Shown here in pieces: positions 6,061 to 25,856 of a stretch of 64,000 nucleotides of DNA; positions within the stretch are counted from its first letter, which is position 1; the number at the start of each line of letters is the position of its first letter. Made by a program: the position numbers and the translations under genes. The notes under the pieces were generated by a model that ran no database searches, had not been told where the DNA came from, and saw only the letters and a list, made by a program, of their open reading frames with translations. Origin of the DNA: Lophium mytilinum (taxonomy: Eukaryota); assembly GCA_010093605.1 (NCBI GenBank), contig MU004183.1:1240001-1304000 (forward strand), in the 5' to 3' direction.

Positions 6061-7077
6061 GTCGGTTCGCATAGACCATGGTAGGTTCAAACCACAAAGC
6101 TCGGAGTAACCAGATTGAGGATTTCACCAACGCGCAACCCTTGCAACCAAATCGATACCCCTACCGCAAGCGAGAGAGAGCAAAAAACTCCGAGCCGGAT
6201 TGACTCCCCTCCTGTCCTTTTATTCTTTTCGATTTGAGGTTCTGGCCGACGCTTTGGTTGCAGAACATAACCCCCCTGTTTTCGGAGTCTTGTGTCATTG
6301 CTTTGCGCGCTTATCCCCACTCCCGTTCGATTGCTTCCCCTCACACCCTCGTCCTTCCCCTTACTGCTCCCCCGCATCCTTCGTGTCTCTCCAAGCTTTC
6401 TCCCGGCCCTAGACGGGTGTCTGGATGTGGCGACCGAGGGCGCGACTGGTGTGAGGAGGGGTGGGAGGGCTTGAGACAGAACGTTTGCGACGTCTTCGCA
6501 AGGCCCGCTTTCCTTTGTTTCGATGGAAGATTGGTCATTCCTGTGGAGTGCATTTCGGGGATGAGCTGGTATGAGATTGTCTCCCGCTGTCCACTCTTTG
6601 ATCGTTGCCGCGATTGCAAGTTGCTCTTGAGTGGGGTTGGCGGTTGCGTGTGGATGAGCTAGTCTTGGTACGCGTTGCTGTTGATGCCTGTTTGAGGGTG
6701 GTTGTGGATACCGCTTGGGCGGTCTGAAGGCTGCATGAGGTAGTTGAGATGAGTAATGAGAGATTCGGCCACCTCTAAAGTTGCGCATGCTGTCGTGACT
6801 TGTTGGCGTTGTTGCGATTGCTCATGCACTAGAGAGTTTCGTACTTGGATGGTGTTCAGGGTGAAAGGTTTGACGGTACGTTTCTTACATTTTTCTCTGA
6901 AATGACATCTATGCACATGCTAACTAACCTATGCGAATGGCCACCTATCTACATGCATCATCCCGTATACTCGTGATGAACGAGACCGTAGCCGCCAAGA
7001 ACTCCGTGTACGCCATGCGACAACACGTCTCATGAATGCGAAGTTCCTTGAAGATTATGGCGACGAGCTCCTTACTT

Positions 7078-9375
7078 TCAAGACGATGGAGCAAAGCTCT
7101 CCTCAAACCGCCTCGCAATCTCCAGCACCGAAGCATCCATACGAGAACCACCCAAAAACGTCACACTGAAAGGGAGCACACCCGCCTCCTTCGTCCCCGC
7201 CAGCTCGGCCAAGGGATATGTGCCCGCAGGCACAGCGACGCCGCAAAGATCAAGCACGTTCCCGCAATGCGTAAATTCGCCTAGTATGCTATTCTTCCTG
7301 ATAGGATCCGCGAGCACTTCGTCGATCCGCCAATGATTCGGCGCGGTCGGTACTACAAGCACGTCGGTTCCCGCAGCGCTCTGCGCGAAAACCTTCTCCG
7401 CCTGCCTCGTATACAGCGCTTTAGCTTGTAAGTCTCGGTAGGCGTCCACAGCGGAGCTGTTCCGGGCGACGACTTTGTCCATCAGCTCGACGATGACGGG
7501 GTGCAAGAGCGCGCGGTTCTTCGCGAACCAGCCATCTGGGAGCGAAGCGAGGCGCTCGCTGACAAAGGTGCCGTCGTAGAGGAGCTCCCCGCCTCTCTGG
7601 AAGGGCGTCCAGTTGATAGGGGTAAGTGTGCCGCCGAGCGACTGGAGCCGCTTCACCGTCTCGTTGAACAGGCGGCGGTGGACGTGGGAGCATATGTCTA
7701 GAGCTTCAGCTGGCGGTATGCTGAATTTGAACGACTTAGCTTGTGGGCCGATGGAGTCGACGTGGCGCTCGTAGGCAATTTCGGGCTTGGCGTAGGCATC
7801 TTCTTCGTCGTGGCCTTCGGTCAGCTGCCAGATTGTTCGTGCGTCGCTGACGTTCTTGGCGGTGATGGCTATGCAGTCGAGGGAGATACACGCGGGTGTG
7901 ACGCCGCGGAAAGATATTAGTCCGCGCGTTGGCTTGTATCCGACGACGCCATTGAAGCCTGCAGGCACGCGACCGGATCCAGCGGTGTCAGTTGCGAGGG
8001 AGAAGGAGACTAGATTGGCGCCGACGCTGACAGCATTGCCGCTGCTGGAGCCGCCACTAATGTAGTCTTTGTTGAATACGGAATGTGTGATGCCGTAGGG
8101 ACTGCGGCAGCCGGTGAGGCCGGTGGCCAACTGATCCAAATTGGTTTTGCCAATGAAGAGAGCTCCCTCTGATATTACTTTGTTGTATACGACAGCGGAA
8201 GCAGAAGGTATATGCGCTAGAGGTGGACACGCTGTGGTGGTGGGCAATCCTGCTACATCGATACTGTCTTTCACGCTGAAGGGGACACCGAATAATGGAG
8301 GTAGTGCTGATCGATCTGAGTATTTTGCTGCAAGAGCTTTTGCTGCCTCCATAACGTTTTCTTTGGATTCGAGATGTATCCATACGGCTGGATCTACTTT
8401 CTGGTACGCTTCGATCTTGTTGTAAAGCGTTTCAGCCAGGGTGACTGGTGATAGGCCTTTCTTGTACGCTTTCTGGAGGCTCGTGATTGCAAGATCACCA
8501 TCGAAGTCCGGTGGCGTCTGTGGAGGGGTAGACGCAGACGAGCCTCTAGCATCGCCGAAAGGCTCCAAGGCATCCAAAAGGGGTTGCAAGCTTGCGATGA
8601 AACCAAATAGGCCTTGGGACCAGTGGATCATGTCAAGCGTTGCACACTTGAAGTTAGTGTCGTTGTACCCACTAGTTGCTTCTTCAATGCCGCCTTAGTC
8701 TTGTCAGCAGGTAAGCTATGTGCTCGTACATGCAATAGACTTACAGCACTCGAAGCCTCGATCGTTAGCCTCTCGTATGGAGGTAGCGAAACAACACTCT
8801 GTAGTCACTCCGGACACAATCAGATGGGTGATCGCTCGAGCTTTAAGCTTGTGAAGAATGGTAGTATTCCAGAACGTCCCTTTCCCAGGCTTGTCGATGA
8901 CGACCTCGCCCGGTAATGGTCTCAATTCGTCGATTATGTCGTGTCCATACTCTCCGCGAACGAGCAGACGGCCCAACTCGCCGCGCTCGCCGATTGTGAG
9001 CTTGTGTTGGGTATTGTCTGGTGCAGCGGCTTGTCGGACGAGCTTTGATATAGTCAGTTGGCCATCGTTCAAAACAGAGAGCAGGATGCGTACTTTGGAG
9101 GAAGGGCAGTCTGATAGATCAGGAACGTGCCCTTCACGAGTATGGACAACGGTCAATCCAGCCCCCCTGGAAGCTTCGAGGAGCTTTCTTGTGGGGGCAA
9201 TGGAGGCCTGCACATCTGCTAGATTCCCTCCTTGAATTTCTCCAAACCCTTTTGCTAAGAGGAAGTCTCGCTGCATATCAATTACGAGGAGAGCTGTATG
9301 CTTCAGTGGGAAAGAGAACGCGTACGGTTTCGCGTCAATTGACACCACCGGTGAAGCATCTTTCTTTATCGTCAT
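7078..9375 (-). CDS. Fusion protein: biuret/triuret-hydrolase-like cysteine hydrolase (isochorismatase fold) plus allophanate hydrolase (amidase signature)
   Basis: The N domain has IDMQRDF, HTREGH.PDLSDCP, DKPGKG, GVTTECC and REANDRGFEC (Asp-Lys-Cys triad). Removing introns 9043-9093 and 8694-8744 joins it in frame (ECC-GIEEATSGYNDTNFKCATLD-MIHWSQGLFG) to ORF 7078-8631. That ORF carries FSVKD, GKTNLDQ.ATGL.G.RSPYG, GGSSSG, TDTAGSGRVPA and LLY....VSER. Confidence 0.9.
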
Positions 9376-10135
9376 ATTGGAATTATGGGGATCGGAAACG
9401 ACGAGCTCGCAAGTAGAAAGATGAAAATAGAGGGGACAACCAGCGTCCAGGAATAAGACTGCAAGGGAACAAGTTTGCAGCTGATGCGAAAGAAGACATT
9501 ATGATAGTGATAGTGCTACAACAAGCATGTCCCGCTTACACCCCGCAACGCCCCTACGCTCAGGGCCGCCGGCCTGGGCTACCGCGCCGGAGGCGACCTT
9601 CGGCGACCGGCACGAAGGCTGGCGGACCTTATCGTCAAGCTAGCTAGTACTAAAGGGGTTACAGGCTGTGGTTGGCGAGTAGCCCCCAAGCCCAGCCCGC
9701 CAGTCCGCCAGCAGCTGACTTCACCACATCCAAACACCATACTTTTAGCTTTTGCGCCTTGCACGACTGGGAACGCTAGACCCCGCGAACCCGGAGCCAC
9801 CATGATTCTGGAACAGATTGGCATGGCTTTGGGCCTCCCACCGTCTGCCATATCAAACTCTGCGTAGCTCGCCGGAGGCACGACCTTCTCCTATCTCCTC
9901 TGCAAGATACTGATCCACAGGAGCCCTCTGAGTTAGGTAGAAGGGCGCCATGGGGGGCTCTTGTCCTCTCCAGAGCTTGAATATATCTATAGGCAGGGGA
10001 CCCAGGTGATCATAACTCATCTTTCTTTTCAAATAATCAAGTCTGCTGCTTTCCAAAGACTTCTTGTTCGCTGGCCGACTTGCTCTTCTGATATCTCTTG
10101 GATCATCACCATAAGCCTCGTCGATACAATCCATC

Positions 10136-12332
10136 ATGTCTATCCTCTCTCCCAGCCGCCTCAAGGCGAAAGTTGGTCCTCACCTGCACCTGAGAGTGCC
10201 CTTTGAAAGTGGAAAATATGCCTCGAGGTGGTCCAATAGGGGTAAGTAATCTTTACAATGTTCGAGCATCGAGTTGTGTGCACCTGTCTGGCATTGCTTG
10301 AAGTTTCTTGATTCACTGGGAGGACTCAGAGTTCAGGTCTGCTTTGAGACATTGATGAACTCGCTGAGCCGCCTCAAGCAGTGACTGCAAGGTGTACACA
10401 GTCCGGTGACAAGTTCCAACCATCAACGGAGTGCGAAACTAATAGGCTTTATAGATCTCGACCCAATTCCTCCTGAGAAGCGGACCTGGGGGGCCATCGA
10501 CTACTGGGCATATTGGACGTCAGACATGTTGGCACCGCCCCTTGCCTCTACCGTTTCTTCGGTCATGTCGCTTGGCTTTACAGCCCGGGAGACGATTCCC
10601 ATTGTCTTCTTCGGTTTCCTGATCTGCAGTGTTGTCATCACTCTCACTGGCAAAATGGGTGCTACTTATGCTGTCCCATTCCCTGTCATTGTGCGAAGCG
10701 TTTTCGGGATGTATGGGTCATTCCCAGCCATCTGCATTCGAGGTATGACACAAAACTAGAACTTCGTGTTGCATTTGCTAATGCATACCTAGCTTTTGTG
10801 GCTTTGATGTGGACTGCAATCCTGACCGTACAGGCCGGTGCTTATTTGCAGCTCTGCCTAGAGGCCATATGGCCAAGCTTCATCCACTTTCCCAATCACC
10901 TCGCCGCTAATGCTGGAGTCACCTGTAAGCGCACCTATATACCAGCTGCTACGATACTATTTACTAATGTCAACAAAGCTGCTGGGCTCCTATGTATCTT
11001 CTTGTACTGGTTTGCGCAGACCGCCCTCGCAATCATGCCCATTGAGAAATTGAGGGTCCTGTTTTGGGTTAAGGGCGTCATTGTAAGTTCCTAGAATGCG
11101 AGGGTCCCTCCAAGCCCACTGACAAATTATAGGTCCCTCCGACGTTCCTTGCGCTTTTCCTCTGGGCGGTTATTGTGACAAAAGGTGGAGGGGAGTTAGT
11201 CACCGGGAAGATGCATATTACATCGACATATATGAACACGGCCTACTCTGCGCTTACCGGGTTGAACGTCATCATCGGACTCTTCAGCTCTATGGCTGTG
11301 AATATGCCCGATTTCGGCAGGTTCTCTAAGAACAGACTGTCTGGGTACAACCAATACTTTGCTCTGCCTATTATCGGTATGGTTGCCGCTCGGGGATATT
11401 CGCTCTACACAACTAAATTCGCTCAGGAACTCTTGGTGCTCTCACTCCCATTTTTGTCACCTCAGCAAACTCGCATCTCTGGGGAACCTTCGAATGGTAC
11501 ATGCCTGCCATCATTGCAAACTTCGACTCTCGTGCCGCGAAGTTCTTCGTGTCGTTCAGCTTCATGCTTGCAACTATCGGTAACCAGGTTGCTGCAGGTA
11601 AGGAATACCGCAATATGCTCCGAGAATTTGAACTGACAATCATAGGCACATATCCTTTCTCGAACGATATCACTGGTATGGCCCCAAAATACATCAATAT
11701 CTTCCGTGCGACCATGTTCATCTCCATCTTCTGTATTGTCTCGACGCCATGGAACATTGTCAAGAATGCGGCAGGTCTGCTAGCATTCCTCTCTGGATAC
11801 TCATGCTTGATGGGACCTCGTACGTATCACCCAACTAGTTTCATCTTTCGATACTGATCGGTCATCCTAGTTGCTGGCACTATGGTTTGCGACTACTACA
11901 TCATCAAGAAGCGGAAGCTCGACATCGACCAGCTGTACACCGGTGAGTCTGGTCAGTTTTATCTCAAAATGAACGGAGCTAACGATGAAAGACCGCGGAA
12001 TCTACTGGTATTCGCACGGATTCAACTGGCGCGCGTTTGTCGCCTTCGTGGTTGGCTTTGCGCCTCTACTTCCCGGATTCGCCAAGAGCATTAAGCCAAC
12101 CCTCAACGTCGGAGGAGCATGGAAGATCTACACTTTTGCTTGGACTTTTGGATTCTTCATTTCGATGCTAGTCCACTATGTCATCTGTACATATGTCTCG
12201 GTTCCTAAGGAGTCTATTATCGAAGAGGCGGTCTACCCGCCACAGCTTGGCGATGTCTCCCCGCCGTCCGAGTTCATGGACTCTGGTAAGGAGGACTATG
12301 TCACGGGGGAGAAGGAAGTCAGCCCCGTTTAG
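10136..12332 (+). CDS. NCS1-family (Fur4/Dal4-like) nucleobase/allantoin permease, multi-exon
   Basis: The spliced N-terminus reads WSNR|DLDPIPPEKRTW. It also has PFPVIVRSVFGMYG, NMPDFGRF, PKYINIFR, TPWNIV, DYYIIKK and GFNWRA, plus many hydrophobic helices. First intron 10242-10453. Confidence 0.92.
10275..10400. mobile_element. Eroded MITE core (hairpin) inside intron 1 of the NCS1 permease
   Basis: tgtgtgcacctgtctggcattgcttgaag...gcctcaagcagtgactgcaaggtgtacaca resembles the internal inverted repeat of the MITE copies at 35631 and 57744. No TIRs or TSD are recognisable. Confidence 0.65.
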
Positions 12333-13375
12333 CGTGCAGGCGCAAACAGTTGTTTTGATGATCACGAACTTAAGTATTTATGATGATCTAAGTTGGAGTT
12401 TTGCTTTAGCGTCTAGTAATAGGGATCGAATCGATAGGGATCAATAGCAGTAAGCTCTTTCACTCTGGTGCATCTTAGGCTAGTAGCCACTCGAATTTGG
12501 CGATTGGCTTCATGGCGTCTGCTGGAAAAGGTCAAGAGCCTTGGCAGCTGGCGTCTGGCGTCTGGATGCGGGTGTGGCTTTGGAAGTCGCTAGTGTCCCG
12601 TGCCTTATCTCGAGAGCCCTCCACGCACGCTGGCTTTGCCAGAGGCCCGGTCGCCGTCGCCGAAGTGCTCAGAGCCTACGTTATCACCCTCAACCATCAT
12701 CGCAGCCCTATGCAGGCCCAGCGCCCGGGTTCTGGGGAACTCGTTAAGAGCACACGACACGCCCAGCCCTGTATATATCTGTATCTTGGAGTTTCACCAG
12801 GGGGCTACCTGGAAAGCAACACGAGAAGATCTACCAACCGGCATCATTCATCATATCATTACCAATCTGACTCCCTTTTCGCCGAAGGTTCCAGCTGATG
12901 AAGCGCTTGTCCTATTCAAGTTTAAAGGTCCCCGGAGTTTTCTGTCATTGGTGAGTACTACAAGGGTGCAACACTGAGCACGCTTATTTACATCCTGTCC
13001 TGCCGTTGATTATGAGTTTTCATGCCTCAGCATGAGCCTATGTAGAGCTAGCTGCCGCTGTGAAAAATTGGACATCGAGTTTACTAGCAGCTCGAGATGA
13101 TGGGCTTCCTTTTCGTTTGTTCTTTTGAAAAAGCGTTGAAGCATCTATGACAATGGCGAGTAGGTGTATCGGTACAGAACGTCAATTGCTTTCGTCAACT
13201 GGGTCTAGCCTACTCCATTATAACCGGCGTCGCGCTGTATCTCAGCTAGCACCCGCTCTCTTCTTTTCCACATCTCCTTCATCTATTCAACCTATCGAGC
13301 CGACTCTGAACCCCATAAAGGAGTGATGGACTTCGCTAATGATGCTCGTAGCTCCTCAGCATTCGGTATCGCGCA

Positions 13376-15724
13376 ATGAGTTACCGGGTGGACCAAGGAA
13401 TCTCCCCTACCGAGTCCTATTCTGGCCAGGGCGACACATCGTCTTCTAAGAATCGATCTCGCCGTCCGTGCGATTCATGTCGGCGCCGTAAGTCAAGATG
13501 TGAGTTGGTTGATGGCGCAACTCCTTGCGTTCTTTGTCGATTTCATCGTCAAGAGTGTACCTTCAAGGAGGAGCCCCAACCTAGAAAAAGGAAAGCTGCT
13601 TCCTTGAGCGAGGAGGAAACCAACAATACAAACTCTTCACGAGACTCTCTTCGCCGTCCGCCCCCGGTCTCTTCCGATAAAGCTTGGATTCCGAGGCATT
13701 CTTTCCATGACATAGCCCATAGGTCCTCGCATCCTATTCGGCAAGATCCACCTATTGACGACTATGCCAACTTGAAGGGACCCTCGCTACTCAAGAAGAC
13801 GCTGGGTTTGCAAAACCATCGGCATAGCAGGTTTATTGGCTCGACGTCCGAGTACGAACAGACCCTTCTAGAACTCGACGCGTACAACGACAAGGACGAG
13901 GTCCCAGTAGGTGCGTCTGCTCTCCGAAAGGTCAATGCCACGGACGCCTTCATCTTGAGCCCCGATGAAGGTACGAGGAATCATGAGGAAGAAATCGTTG
14001 ATTTGGATGCTATCGAGATGATAGTTGCACCGCACGGCCAGGCTTTGATCCATCTGTACTTCCGGATTGTTCACCCCAGCTTCCCCATCTTGCACAAGAA
14101 GGTCTTCCTCGAAAAGTACCAACGGACGCACCGCGAATTCTCTCCGCCGCTTCTAGCAGCTGTATATATCCTAGCTTTAAACTGGTGGTCCTACAGCAGT
14201 GACTTGGCGCTTCTGCCAAAGCCTGACGTACCTAACCTTGAGAAGTTGGCGTTCAAGACTGTGAACGATATTATTCATCGTCCAAAACTCTCCACTATTC
14301 AAGCCGGTCTGCTTTTGCTCCAAAGACCGGAAGGCGACTCTTGGGCGCTCACTAGCCAGCTTGTCGGACTCGGACAAGATCTCGGTCTTCATCTCGATTG
14401 CTCTACGTGGAGGGTACCGGCTTGGGAGCGAGGGCTGCGAAAGAGGTTGGCGTGGGCTCTATTCATGCAAGATAAATGGGGCTCTCTAGTCCATGGAAGG
14501 CCTTCTCATATAGCTACGACTGACTGGGAAGTACAGCCTCTGTCGGAGATTGATTTTCCCGAGAGCGCTGCCGATGAGGATGACGAGGACGGCAGTACCG
14601 AAGTCGAGAAGGGCCGCACGCTGTTTTGCGAGATGATCACCCTGACAGAGATTCTCGCTGTTATTCTCTCTAATTTCTACACTTTGAAAGCAGAGCAAGA
14701 TATACGGATGCACGCCCAGGATGGCGTCCGCTGGATATTAGAGAAAGCAAAGCCAAGTCAACTAGCCCTCAAAACGTGGTTTGCACAAATGCCTGCTATA
14801 CTAAAGATGGAGAATGTCGCAATGAGGAAACTGTCGTCTACAGGTAAGCCAATCATCCTTCAGCATGCTTCCTTACCAGAACTGCATTTCAGACGCTGAC
14901 CCCTATATGTAGGCTATCTCCACCTAGGCTACTACGCCGTAGAGATTACCCTCCACAGACGAATTATCCGGGCCCTGTCCTCGTTAGACGATCCCTCACT
15001 GGTCTCCATCTGTCGACATGCCGCTCGTGCACGGCTTGTGTCTGCAATGGATTTTGTACAAGGACTTCGACCCGAACATCTGCAGTCATTCTGGTATTCC
15101 GCGTCAAAGTACTGCTTCGCGCTAATCGGCTCATTCGTATCTCTACTATGGGTAACGGTGCAAGAGAAAGAAGAAGCGGAGTTCTACAAAGCGAAGCTAG
15201 AGGAGTACAGATGGACGTTGCGGCTCTCGTCGAAGAGTGCGGATTTCCTGGAGAGAGCCATCAGCATGCTAGCAATATCGACAGGCGTCCTCGTCAAAGC
15301 AATTCCGGACAGATCGAACGCAGAGTTTGCCGCTGCGAGGATTAGGAATCCTGCCAAACCTCAGGCTATTTCAGCGAGAGCACACTCTTTTCTAGATTCT
15401 AGGTCGCATACCCACTCGGCACCTATTAATGAGTACTCTGAGTCCGAGTCGTATGAGGGACAAACAACAGAGCACACTCCTGACATGGGCGAAACGCCGG
15501 AGGATTCTGCCACGAATGAAGACTTCATCCCGGATCACCTGTGGTTTGCAAATGCAGCTCAGTTGAACGATATCAGTGCGGTGTATGGAGAGAGTAATGC
15601 GACCGGAATGGATCATGATTTCATGAATATGCCGGGGATCGGACATGTTGGAGATGGATACGACTTTCAGGCCTTGCGGGGGCACGAGGGGCCTCCGGGC
15701 TCGGGCGATGTGGAACAGGGTTGA
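13376..15724 (+). CDS. Zn(II)2Cys6 transcription factor, Dal81/TamA-like
   Basis: Binuclear cluster CDSCRRRKSRC...CVLCRFHRQEC. Fungal TF middle homology region YFRIVHPSFPILHK...QDLGLHLDC..W.VP.WE..LRKRLAWALFMQDKW. Intron 14844-14912. The Dal81/TamA subfamily call is from recollection. Confidence 0.88.
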
Positions 15725-17548
15725 TTCTTAAGTTGTTGTCGATATCAAAAGTGCTAATTTGGCATCTCGAGGTACATTCTACTGTTGCTTTGCAAGGGTT
15801 GTACTGTATAATCGCATCATCGAGCGTTTGGCTATTAGATTTCGGTGCAGATGATATCCGCTATTTCAATCTTCTTCTTGCAAGGCCTCATTAAAAGGTC
15901 TATGTTGACCCTAATGTCACTACAGCTGGCGACCGAGTAAGGTTACGTGTCGAGATTCTAGCAGTACAAATCAGACTGCTTCTTAGCTCACTAGCTAGAA
16001 GTTCAGACATTTGGATATACCACTGCATCAGTGCTACTTTGGAAGCTAGTTAGCACTGTCTAGGGTGCCCCCGCTAGCAAGTAGCCAACAAATCAAGAAG
16101 CAGTCTGATTTAGACTGCTTAAAACTTGACATCACGCTTAGACTTTCGAGACTCATGGGGGTTACCCCAAGCAGCATGAGTAGGGAGTTTCTTTACTTTT
16201 CCAAAAGTCTGGGAGCGGACGACGGACTGACTACATAGGAGGTGTGGATTTGGGATAGAAGGTATAATATCAGGAAACGCTGTTTCCTCCAGTAAATGGC
16301 TGTGTATCGCTCCTACATATGTAGACGCACTTCGTCTTGAAATTGAGTTCACAGCAGAGAGAAATGCGACGGTGCCCTGGTACCTAATACTGGCTCCAGA
16401 TTTCATGCTATCGTCGAAATATGCATCAAAAGGTGAAGTTGCGTTTTATGACTGCACTGGTGGAAATGACCTACAATGTAGTACGGGGCCAACGCAATTG
16501 ATGGACACGAGGGATTTCAGCAACAAATATCTGACCCATTGGCCCGCGCAGCTCGGCCAACCTGACTCTTGTTTCAGGCTTACACACAGCGTCAGACTCC
16601 TTGGCTGGGGCCCTCGGGGGGCCTGTTCGTAGATACTGTTACCTACCTTCAGCGTTGGCCGGTGAACGTGCAGTGATACCAAGGCCCTCAGCGCTTAAGC
16701 AAGAACACATATGCAATCGAGCGCGCGGACGGGACCAATGCTCGCCACAGACCTCACGACTAGTGCTGGCAGATGCTTCGGCGTCCGCAATGGCAGGCCA
16801 TGTGCACGGCGGGAAGGGTGTTGAAGGATGGCTGGTCTGCGCTGCTGCTGGCGCCACGCATTGGCACACGTCGGGCACAGGAGGGCGCCATCAGGGCCGC
16901 AGACACTGTACTGTGCCGGAGCGCAGACCGAAGATCAGGCTGGACAGTGCTGTCGCCGGCGGCGTTCGTGTTATTTGGCTGGCGGCTGGGCACAAATTGG
17001 TGGTGCCTGACGGCGGTGGGCAGCTCTCCAGTCTCCCACAACGGCTTGTGGCTTTGTCGAGGTTGAGAACCGACCTACTCCAACGCATCCCTCCTCTACC
17101 TCCGTCCTCCCAACCTCTGCTGCTGCATTTTTTGCTCGCCCACCACCGCATCCAGCGTCCAGCTGTCCTCGGCCGCCCCAGGCCTTTGCCCGCCTCTCGC
17201 CGCCCCGGCCTCCAGCATCGTCGCCCGCTCGACGTCGTCGCAGGCTCACCCCTCCGCCGCACCGCCCGCCAGACTCTCCTCCGCCCAGTGATCGTGCCCG
17301 ACCTGCGCGAGGCTCGAACATCCCGACAACTCGGCGTCCTACACGTGTCTCGCCATCGCCGTCGCGCCCACCGGCTCTAGGTGAAGCTCGATACTGGCCG
17401 TTTGCCCAGCAGCCTGCCCCCACACGACGTTGGTGCGTTCCGGCATGCGCATCTCGAATTCGTCGGCGTAACCAGCTGAACCGGCTGCGTACCCCCCGAA
17501 CAACTTGCACCGCCTCTCCACCTCTCGCACGCCTCGCCCGCTATCGCT

Positions 17549-20558
<3,010 letters not shown>

Positions 20559-24884: not shown

Positions 24885-25856
24885 TCAATCGACCGCATAC
24901 CCTTCCGTGTCCTCGTCGGACTCTTCATCCTCATCTTCCTCGTCTGACTCTCCATCCTCATCTGACTCATCATCCTCGTCTGACTCTTCGGACTCTTCAT
25001 CCTCATCCCCCTCGTCCTGTGAATCGTTCTCCATGAAAGCACGAACAATCTCCCTCCCTTCTTCGCGATCTTCCTCTTTATAGATGCTCAACGCATACAT
25101 CCTGAGGAACTTGAATTCGTTGCCGAAGTGAGTCTTGAGCCAGGCTTTCTCGGCGGCGTTGTATCCGGGGCTAGTCTGGGTGTTCTGGGGAGTGTTGTTC
25201 GTTGGCGGTAATGCAATAGCAAGGCCAGCTGTGTGGATGGTGCGACTCTGGTTTCGCTTGTACGCCTCCCATCGCACGAGCTCTGACTGCTCCCAGCAGA
25301 CGTTCAAGCAATAAGCGGTATTTCTTGGCTCGTCGAAGATGCTTGGTCCAACAACAGGGCCAACTGGCGGTCCGCTCAGCTTGACCTGAAAGAGTGGTTT
25401 GCTCGGGTCTAGGTCGAAGTACGCTAGGGTTTGCCCTTGGGTGTCCTTGATAGTGCCGCGAGCCGTTTCGTCCCAACTGGTAGTGATACGGAGTTTTTGG
25501 TCATCCTCTTTGGTTAGGCCGATGATGTTGCATACGGCAGACGGGATGTAGAGTACGTCGTGGAGAACGAGCTGTCCATGGGCATCGGGGCCGCTGTGGC
25601 CAGGGGCTTTCTCAGTGGGGAGGGATACGGTGCCAACGCCGAGGACTGGCATGCGAGACTGGAAGTAGATGGAGCCGGCGAACGATTTGAAGGGGCTGTA
25701 GTCAGTGAACCAGCCGCGATTCTTGCAGGCACTGAATAACGGAAGTTAGTAAGGTCTCTCCATTGCCGCTAGTTCGTTCCAGACGTACTGAACGTTGGAG
25801 CCACTGGAGAATACCCAGTCCGGGCACAGAGGCTCGGACGAGAAACTCGGTGGCAT
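24885..25856 (-). CDS. Hypothetical protein with a Ty1/Copia aspartic-protease-like N-terminal domain and an acidic tract
   Basis: MPPSFSSEPLCPDWVFSSGSNVH|ACKNRGWFTDYSPF...VLGVGTVSL...LHDVLYIPSAVCNII after removing intron 25732-25788. D/E-rich low-complexity region near the C-terminus. The frame continues past the TGA to 24753. Confidence 0.75.

Follow-up and report, generated by a model that had tools for sequence, protein, structure and literature searches.

A candidate three-gene module for ureide nitrogen scavenging in Lophium mytilinum and other Pezizomycotina

The genome of the fungus Lophium mytilinum contains a compact three-gene locus within a 64,000-nucleotide stretch of contig MU004183.1 (assembly GCA_010093605.1, positions 1,240,001 to 1,304,000 of the forward strand), hereafter the window, to which all coordinates refer. 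The leftwards-transcribed gene G1 (7078..9375) codes for a cysteine hydrolase fused to an amidase of the allophanate hydrolase (AH) type, and the rightwards-transcribed genes G2 (10136..12332) and G3 (12655..15724) code for an NCS1 permease and a Zn2Cys6 transcription factor of the TamA/Dal81 family. The three genes are found together in many Pezizomycotina, and we consider it probable that they constitute a nitrogen-scavenging module, which would import and mineralize a small linear ureide of the triuret/biuret kind. A first-pass annotation of the same DNA had placed three genes of these types here, with a 760-bp ATG-to-ATG spacing between the divergent G1 and G2 (9376..10135) and no accompanying urea carboxylase, and our analysis agrees on all of these points; Pfam searches of 52 window open reading frames (ORFs), from a total of 91 of at least 130 aa, found no urea carboxylase domain, the other 39 being mostly overlapping or antisense frames.

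The G1 coding sequence, join(9375..9094, 9042..8745, 8693..7078), is interrupted by two introns of 51 nt each with GT..AG ends and a CTGAC branch site, and its 731-aa spliced product is identical, letter for letter, to the deposited L. mytilinum protein P0001 ('amidase signature enzyme'). An isochorismatase-like cysteine hydrolase domain (residues ~8–237; Pfam Isochorismatase, 5.8e-28) is followed by a poorly conserved linker (~238–262) and an amidase domain (~263–731; Pfam Amidase, 3.5e-72). Exon 3 by itself codes for residues 195–731, which take in the C-terminal ~40 residues of the hydrolase domain, the linker and the entire amidase, so that the two parts are physically joined however the transcript is spliced. 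It is also widespread: both domains are present in 87 of the 120 best database matches to the amidase exon, with representatives in the Dothideomycetes, Lecanoromycetes and Sordariomycetes, and two shorter matches that were inspected are cut gene calls, since they begin within the hydrolase domain. An alignment of the fusions of 13 species has a mean column identity of 77%, with the catalytic residues intact in all.

The closest structural relatives of the amidase domain in the PDB are AtzF (4cp8, 1.4e-100), Granulibacter AH (3.3e-95) and Kluyveromyces lactis AH (1.2e-72), and it is nearer to the bacterial AH than to that of K. lactis (340 and 248 bits, respectively). The catalytic triad of K335, the cis-Ser in the GGSSSG motif (S409–S411) and S433, which aligns with the K. 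lactis AH nucleophile Ser177, is invariant in the 13 fusions. So is an LLYxGxxVxERL motif containing Y566 and R574; AtzF and K. lactis AH also carry it, as LLYxGxWVAER, and the two residues, eight apart, align with positions 328 and 336 of the 4gyr chain, at an offset of 29 from Tyr299/Arg307, which we take to be the pair that binds the allophanate carboxylate in Granulibacter AH. The AH profile match covers positions 7–449 of 600 and the protein ends with the amidase domain, such that the AH C-terminal domain is absent from predicted G1. The earlier label 'allophanate hydrolase' thus holds for the amidase domain and not for a complete AH. The amidase domain of AtzF is fully active when the remainder of the protein is trimmed away (PMC3944691).

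The hydrolase domain is most similar among proteins of solved structure to the triuret hydrolase TrtA (6xix; 205.5 bits, E 8.5e-60; ~49% identity counted from the alignment), which is the wild-type enzyme (PMC7948467), followed by the biuret hydrolases (BiuH) of Rhodococcus (6xjm, 173.9 bits) and Rhizobium (6azo, 169.5 bits). Its D33, K145 and C178 align with the TrtA triad D24, K129 and C162, and V173-T174 with V157-T158 of the TrtA active-site cis-peptide; the Asp-Lys-Cys triad and the Val-Thr pair are invariant in the 13 fungal fusions wherever these are covered. TrtA and BiuH are discriminated by six positions, F35, N41, A134, E160, Y187 and I205 in TrtA, together with the register of Q202 (PMC7948467). 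The fungal domain has the TrtA-type residue at three of these (F44, E176 and Y203, corresponding to F35, E160 and Y187), a conservative replacement at the I205 position (L222), and a variable Thr, Ser or Ala at that of A134, and it has none of the five BiuH-type discriminators (Y, Y, D, T, V). As signatures, the fungal fusions read FG[NS][STA]ECYS[QE]L and 32 BiuH-type sequences read YYD[SA]DCTQGV. A PDLSDCPSSK plus FK motif is common to the fungal domain and TrtA-type bacterial paralogs. In two bacterial-type metagenome loci a true BiuH (scoring 408 and 421 bits against the BiuH equivalog profile NF050097) accompanies a TrtA-type paralog (233 and 256 bits), and the fungal domain is 46–54% identical to the TrtA-type copies of these loci and 42–43% to the BiuH copies. 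A careful 39-row maximum likelihood tree joins the fungal and TrtA-type sequences at 91/98, with the fungi nested among bacterial sequences on a long branch. A quick 126-row tree was set aside in favor of the 39-row tree, as it was contradicted by its own approximately unbiased (AU) test run.

G2 is a Fur/Dal4-like permease whose NCS1 assignment is confirmed by Pfam family PF02133, to which the five scanned exon translations match in order, extending from profile position 1 to 438 of 440. The 543-aa product of its nine exons (10136..10241, 10455..10742, 10793..10924, 10979..11082, 11133..11376, 11427..11597, 11646..11819, 11871..11942 and 11992..12332) equals the deposited protein P0121. G2 scores 273 bits on the NCS1 subfamily profile TIGR00800, under its cut-off of 353, and is far from the allantoin permease equivalogs PRK11375 and NF047713 (181 bits against a cut-off of 620, and 160 against 800). 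Its only relative of solved structure is the hydantoin permease Mhp1, which at 4e-10 is too distant for a comparison of binding sites. Transcript evidence for the locus comes from contigs of one public run (X1), whose assignment is a guess and in which rarer forms drop out; the contigs derive from RNA, since ten GT..AG joints are present in them. Eight of these joints account for all eight G2 introns, and two lie in G3 (12949/13351 in the 5' untranslated region and 14841/14911 within the coding sequence).

G3 has a 759-aa product encoded by two segments (13376..14843 and 14913..15724), and it matches the Pfam domains Zn_clus (24.8 bits; cluster cysteines C32, C35, C42, C51, C54 and C61) and Fungal_trans (1.7e-28). 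The RNA contigs place a 5' untranslated exon at 12655–12949 followed by a 401-nt intron (12950–13350), and two upstream ATGs at ~13327 and ~13340 fall within that intron and are spliced away. Orthologs of G3 are 60–96% identical over exon 1, and in five species are named 'nitrogen regulatory protein OTam', OTam being the Aspergillus oryzae homolog of TamA. Other named relatives are a Pyronema protein 'similar to DAL81 P21657' (53% identity), a Plectosphaerella 'DAL81' (45%), a Coccidioides 'TamA' (38%) and a family member from the yeast Tetrapisispora (31% over 774 aa), and these full-length similarities, with the Pfam domains, bear out the Dal81/TamA-like classification made earlier.

L. mytilinum has a second gene of this family on another contig (2.44 Mb), P0488 (BU16DRAFT_305746), which codes for 724 aa and is 50% identical to the cluster-linked type. 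The TamA-named Coccidioides protein P0471 and its Onygenales relatives score higher with P0488 than with the linked type (345/299, 471/392 and 478/406 bits), and the TamA-named proteins group with P0488 in the tree. The prior possibility that G3 is the single-copy TamA ortholog is therefore not borne out, as P0488 exists and is closer to the TamA-named proteins. A topology in which the linked type and the TamA-named proteins form a clade of their own is rejected by an AU test (p 4.7e-5), that group having been named after the tree was seen. All 33 linked factors score best with the linked Dothideomycete or Trichoglossum type and never with P0488 or TamA; the linked Trichoglossum factor itself branches on the TamA side (93/90 by the Shimodaira-Hasegawa-like approximate likelihood ratio test, SH-aLRT), and family members from the yeast clade have higher scores with the linked type than with the TamA-like paralog.

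The synteny search recommended for the Pezizomycotina gave a positive answer. In named genomes, the fusion and permease genes have adjacent locus tags in a Pleosporales species and in Rusavskia, the fusion and factor genes are two tags apart in Neocucurbitaria, the permease and factor genes are adjacent in Trichoglossum, and one mis-fused gene model joins permease and factor in Pyrenula. A scan of metagenome contigs yielded 79 loci, 74 of them of fungal type and many of them near-copies of one another. Of the 51 fungal loci with a flank of at least 1.5 kb, 39 have the permease gene upstream of and divergent from the fusion gene. A factor gene is linked in 33 loci. The latter occur in four gene orders: TF-NCS1-fusion (order A; 20 loci), NCS1-fusion-TF (B; four, plus one partial), an inverted TF-NCS1-fusion (C; four) and TF-fusion (D; four). 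There is no fourth conserved gene in 25 loci and the window, the only other conserved frames being those that overlap the three genes.

Several loci depart from these common arrangements. In a lineage where the factor is directly upstream of the fusion, a distant NCS1 paralog sharing 28–32% identity with G2 closely follows the fusion gene on its downstream side (L046, 2955–4849; L047, 7508–9232; L052, 6071–7850); this may be a second, independent pairing of fusion and NCS1 genes. Loci L065–L068 and L077 contain a diverged fusion lineage (51–52% identical) with no intron between the two domains, in which the divergent permease is present and no factor is linked within the flanks. We also note a permease and a factor with adjacent tags (P0165/P0341; R6Q59_010225, R6Q59_010224) on a 96-Mb contig of the plant Mikania micrantha, the permease being 81% identical over exon 1; these look like fungal DNA in a plant assembly, whether by contamination or insertion.

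The divergent G1/G2 promoter contains a conserved element. From 42 divergent promoters, which collapse to 22 non-redundant groups, the element GCCGNNGGC was recovered as 58 matches, both strands counted, in 19 of the 22, compared with 3.9 +/- 2.3 (maximum 12) in first-order shuffles. Counted as distinct sites it occurs at 2.24 per kb, 14-fold denser than the 0.16 per kb in the rest of the loci and the window, and the G+C content of the two is equal. Instances often read GCCGNCGGC, which is an everted CCG/CGG pair one base apart, and everted CCG/CGG pairs are the kind of site bound by zinc-cluster dimers. The window promoter has GCCGNNGGC sites at 9565–9573, 9586–9594 and 9871–9879, in addition to GATA sites. 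The sequence GAGATAG is present in 15 of the 22 promoters, against at most 7 in shuffles, and HGATAR sites occur at about twice the expected frequency, an enrichment that points to nitrogen control by GATA factors. A further 9-mer, TACATATAC, is found in seven of the 22 promoters (L008, L015, L021, L032, L036, L037 and L054; at most one in shuffles) and is not in the window promoter.

These features suggest the following scheme for a module whose probable origin is a bacterial trtA-AH gene pair. The NCS1 permease would import the ureide, and the cysteine hydrolase domain (D33, K145, C178) would strip a terminal amide nitrogen to leave an N-carboxylated ureide, namely allophanate from biuret or carboxybiuret from triuret. 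The amidase domain (K335, the cis-Ser and S433, with Y566 and R574 holding the carboxylate) would then hydrolyze allophanate to products whose breakdown to CO2 and ammonia would not require the AH C-terminal domain. Transcription from the divergent promoter would be activated by the linked TamA/Dal81 paralog acting, we suggest, at the GCCGNNGGC sites, with allophanate as a conceivable inducer, and the GATA sites would bring the G1/G2 pair under general nitrogen control.

A number of observations weigh against this scheme, beginning with its chemistry. Carboxybiuret, the product of TrtA, is not the substrate of AH, and neither a BiuH nor a TrtB-like decarboxylase is conserved in the module in 25 loci and the window. 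Remodeling of the loop could have given the domain biuret hydrolase or generalist activity, carboxybiuret might decay to biuret that is then taken again, or the true substrate could be another acyl-urea. The TrtA-critical N41 aligns with G50 in the fungal domain, and the key glutamine is shifted one residue later (HWSQGLFG against TAQGGIVG) and is replaced by Glu in two of the 13 fusions, both from lichen fungi; with two TrtA-critical positions differing, the substrate is not readable from the sequence. The domain scores 218.8 bits on NF050097, under the cut-off of 370, where BiuH-type paralogs score 400–422 and TrtA-type paralogs 246–267. An AU test on the 39-row set does not reject a grouping of the fungi with BiuH (p 0.17), and the 126-row quick analysis was unstable, with the constrained fungi-plus-BiuH tree having a higher likelihood than the free tree. 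Given the mixed residues, this AU result and that instability, the domain is, as far as its sequence goes, TrtA-like and not TrtA. The 'biuret/triuret-like' enzyme of the first-pass annotation accordingly keeps its kinship, refined to TrtA-like, and its substrate is an extrapolation from that kinship: biuret and/or triuret is somewhat probable, another acyl-urea is a distinct though minor possibility, and something else is unlikely.

The remaining difficulties concern the other parts of the module. The amidase falls below both AH cut-offs (427.3 against 511 for TIGR02713 and 456.5 against 487 for NF006043), which is attributable to the missing C-terminal domain, and the role we assume for Tyr299/Arg307 found no confirmation in a literature search. 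An NCS1 gene homologous to G2 is present in none of 80 bacterial TrtA-type loci, and there is thus no precedent among them for NCS1 transport of biuret or triuret. The upstream NCS1 gene is missing in 12 of the 51 informative fungal loci and the factor in seven of the 22 loci with long flanks, and GCCGNNGGC is missing from three of the 22 promoters and from all four order-D TF-fusion intergenic regions. Finally, the sole RNA contig spanning G1 retains the two introns of that gene and extends across the promoter into G2.

That contig opens the question of whether G1 makes one fused protein at all, since retention of intron 2, which contains an in-frame stop, would yield a truncated hydrolase domain from a silent or decaying locus. 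The contig (5703 nt, window 6900–12455) has all of the G2 introns spliced, the promoter and the entire G1 unspliced, and extends past 6900. As it crosses the intergenic region it may be antisense, read-through or DNA carry-over, and the G1 splice model accordingly rests on comparison. Both introns have the GT..AG ends and branch sites described above, and the spliced product equals the conserved protein; relatives have no intron 1, their frame running on without the 17 extra codons, and the position of intron 2 is shared by distant relatives. In the L065 lineage intron 2 is absent and residues 11–621 form a single unbroken tblastn segment. The 77% mean column identity of the 13 fusions and their intact catalytic residues also indicate purifying selection, and we regard an unfused or decaying G1 as very improbable. 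It is also quite unlikely, in our judgment, that G3 is simply a general nitrogen regulator of the TamA/Dal81 kind that is nearby by descent and exerts no specific control of its neighbors. TamA is a co-activator of AreA and Dal81 acts on several pathways (PMC8399174, PMC10169451), and the strong conservation of G3 orthologs, the position of the linked Trichoglossum factor and the seven long-flank loci that have no factor would all fit a general role. Simple inherited synteny does not, however, predict an adjacency kept in four gene orders, L. mytilinum has a second and more TamA-like paralog, the AU test goes against uniting the linked type with TamA (for a group chosen post hoc), and the shared promoter holds a CCG/CGG-type element of the zinc-cluster kind.

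A different substrate for the same module is the more substantial alternative, possible although we doubt it. The permease would then import a cyclic or substituted ureide (one derived from allantoin, hydantoin or pyrimidines, or oxalurate or formylurea), the hydrolase would act on this compound or on what its ring opening yields, with the amidase receiving the resulting N-carboxy-amide. The best curated matches to the permease are indeed allantoin permeases, albeit far under their cut-offs, its one solved relative transports hydantoin, none of the 80 bacterial TrtA-type loci uses an NCS1 permease, and the substrate loop of the hydrolase resembles neither TrtA nor BiuH. Formylurea, moreover, is turned over at a measurable rate by TrtA (PMC7948467, Table 2). 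Against this, allantoinase, hydantoinase, cyanuric acid hydrolase and barbiturase are neither conserved beside the gene pair nor present in the scanned window ORFs, and the hydrolases RutB and N-carbamoylsarcosine amidase are far more distant from the fungal domain than TrtA and BiuH (83 and 53 bits, compared with 205 for TrtA). The AH-type Tyr/Arg motif, which on the triuret/biuret reading would hold the carboxylate, is also retained.

The nearest known counterpart of the module is the bacterial triuret/biuret pathway of TrtA, BiuH and AtzF, described in Herbaspirillum sp. BH-1 and Rhizobium leguminosarum (PMC7948467), which uses the same two kinds of enzyme. An AH gene is at most 6 kb from the TrtA-type gene in 21 of the 80 bacterial loci, and in L073, L123 and L132 it is directly downstream, matching the order of the fungal domains. 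The fungal system differs in that the enzymes are joined in a single polypeptide that has one cysteine hydrolase and no BiuH beside it, lacks the AH C-terminal domain and carries a remodeled glutamine loop. Uptake is assigned to an NCS1 permease where L073 and L078 have ABC transporter genes in its place, and the regulator is a Zn2Cys6 protein where L073 has a GntR-type gene. The bacterial loci have a variety of organizations: L073 (276–6214) has the order biuH, ABC ATPase, trtA-like, AH and GntR regulator, L078 (4914–10690) has both BiuH-type and TrtA-type cysteine hydrolases, and in L080–L082 AH, BiuH-type and TrtA-type genes are in series.

Likeness to fungal systems is more partial. The Saccharomyces DAL/DUR genes include Dal4, an NCS1 allantoin permease, Dur1,2, a urea amidolyase with an AH domain, and Dal81, a zinc-cluster co-activator, and the resemblance extends to the permease, the AH-type amidase and the Dal81-family factor; the AH domain here is joined to a cysteine hydrolase and not to urea carboxylase, and the yeast genes do not form a three-gene cluster of this kind. 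Yeast DAL81 is presumably a few genes from DAL4, a placement for which a literature search gave no confirmation. Dal81 is required for DUR1,2 induction (PMC10169451). Aspergillus nidulans TamA, the AreA co-activator, belongs to the same family as G3 and has the same Zn_clus and Fungal_trans domains, but G3 is not its ortholog insofar as TamA-named proteins are nearer to P0488 in a comparison made with TamA-named proteins other than that of A. nidulans. A. nidulans has two such genes, TamA and AN4489 (PMC8399174). Urea amidolyase likewise has AH fused to an enzyme that makes allophanate (PMC5770610), whereas the partner domain here is hydrolytic and needs neither ATP nor biotin. The K. lactis urea amidolyase fusion does not channel allophanate (PMC5770610), and for this reason channeling is not to be assumed in the fungal fusion. 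A search of the ESM Atlas gave matches at the family level only.

To our knowledge, the degradation of triuret and biuret has been described in bacteria alone; the triuret step dates from a 2020 paper (Tassoulas et al., PMC7948467), which mentions trtA as 'also present in some fungi'. A full-text literature search of incomplete coverage yielded this one-line mention of trtA and nothing on the fusion, its linkage to the permease, the regulator or the promoter element, in keeping with the expectation that no fungal cluster of this composition had been characterized. The carriers of the module belong to several ascomycete classes and include lichen-forming and plant-associated fungi, with experimentally tractable genera such as Parastagonospora, Bipolaris, Pyrenophora and Ilyonectria among them. 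If our interpretation is correct, the module represents a bacterial chemistry in eukaryotic form, with one fused enzyme, its own importer and its own regulator, and fungal metabolism would gain both a nitrogen source and a catabolic route. The module would also bear on the fate in soil of the biuret and triuret impurities of urea fertilizer, offer a naturally occurring scaffold of the TrtA type, its glutamine loop shifted, for studying discrimination between triuret and biuret, and provide a simple system (one promoter, a candidate element and a dedicated paralog) for asking what TamA/Dal81-type factors sense.

A more speculative idea, to which we attach rather little weight, is that the TamA/Dal81 family had its origin in a pathway-specific regulator belonging to this module, with TamA and Dal81 being later descendants that left the cluster. 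The ancestral factor would then have adjoined the permease and enzyme genes and answered to allophanate or a related ureide, and we note that yeast Dal81, puzzlingly, requires allophanate or oxalurate as an inducing signal. The branching of the linked factor of Trichoglossum, an early-branching fungus, on the TamA side, the preference of yeast scores for the linked type and the existence of four gene orders are all consistent with such an origin.

The remainder of the scanned window ORFs are of housekeeping types (UBC, BTB, kinase, eIF3c, exportin-5, DnaJ/TPR and others), with neither a ring-opening amidohydrolase nor an additional ureide enzyme among the 52 of 91 ORFs scanned. A leftwards-transcribed ORF at 24885–25745 has a retroelement Pol beta-barrel domain (PF22936, 2.1e-07) and is probably a transposon remnant. 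The segment at 16500–18100 is G+C-rich (0.647 at 17–18 kb) with long Pro/Arg/Ser-rich frames on both strands, and may be the disordered N-terminal region of the downstream kinase gene, the kinase domain of which is at 18803–19742.

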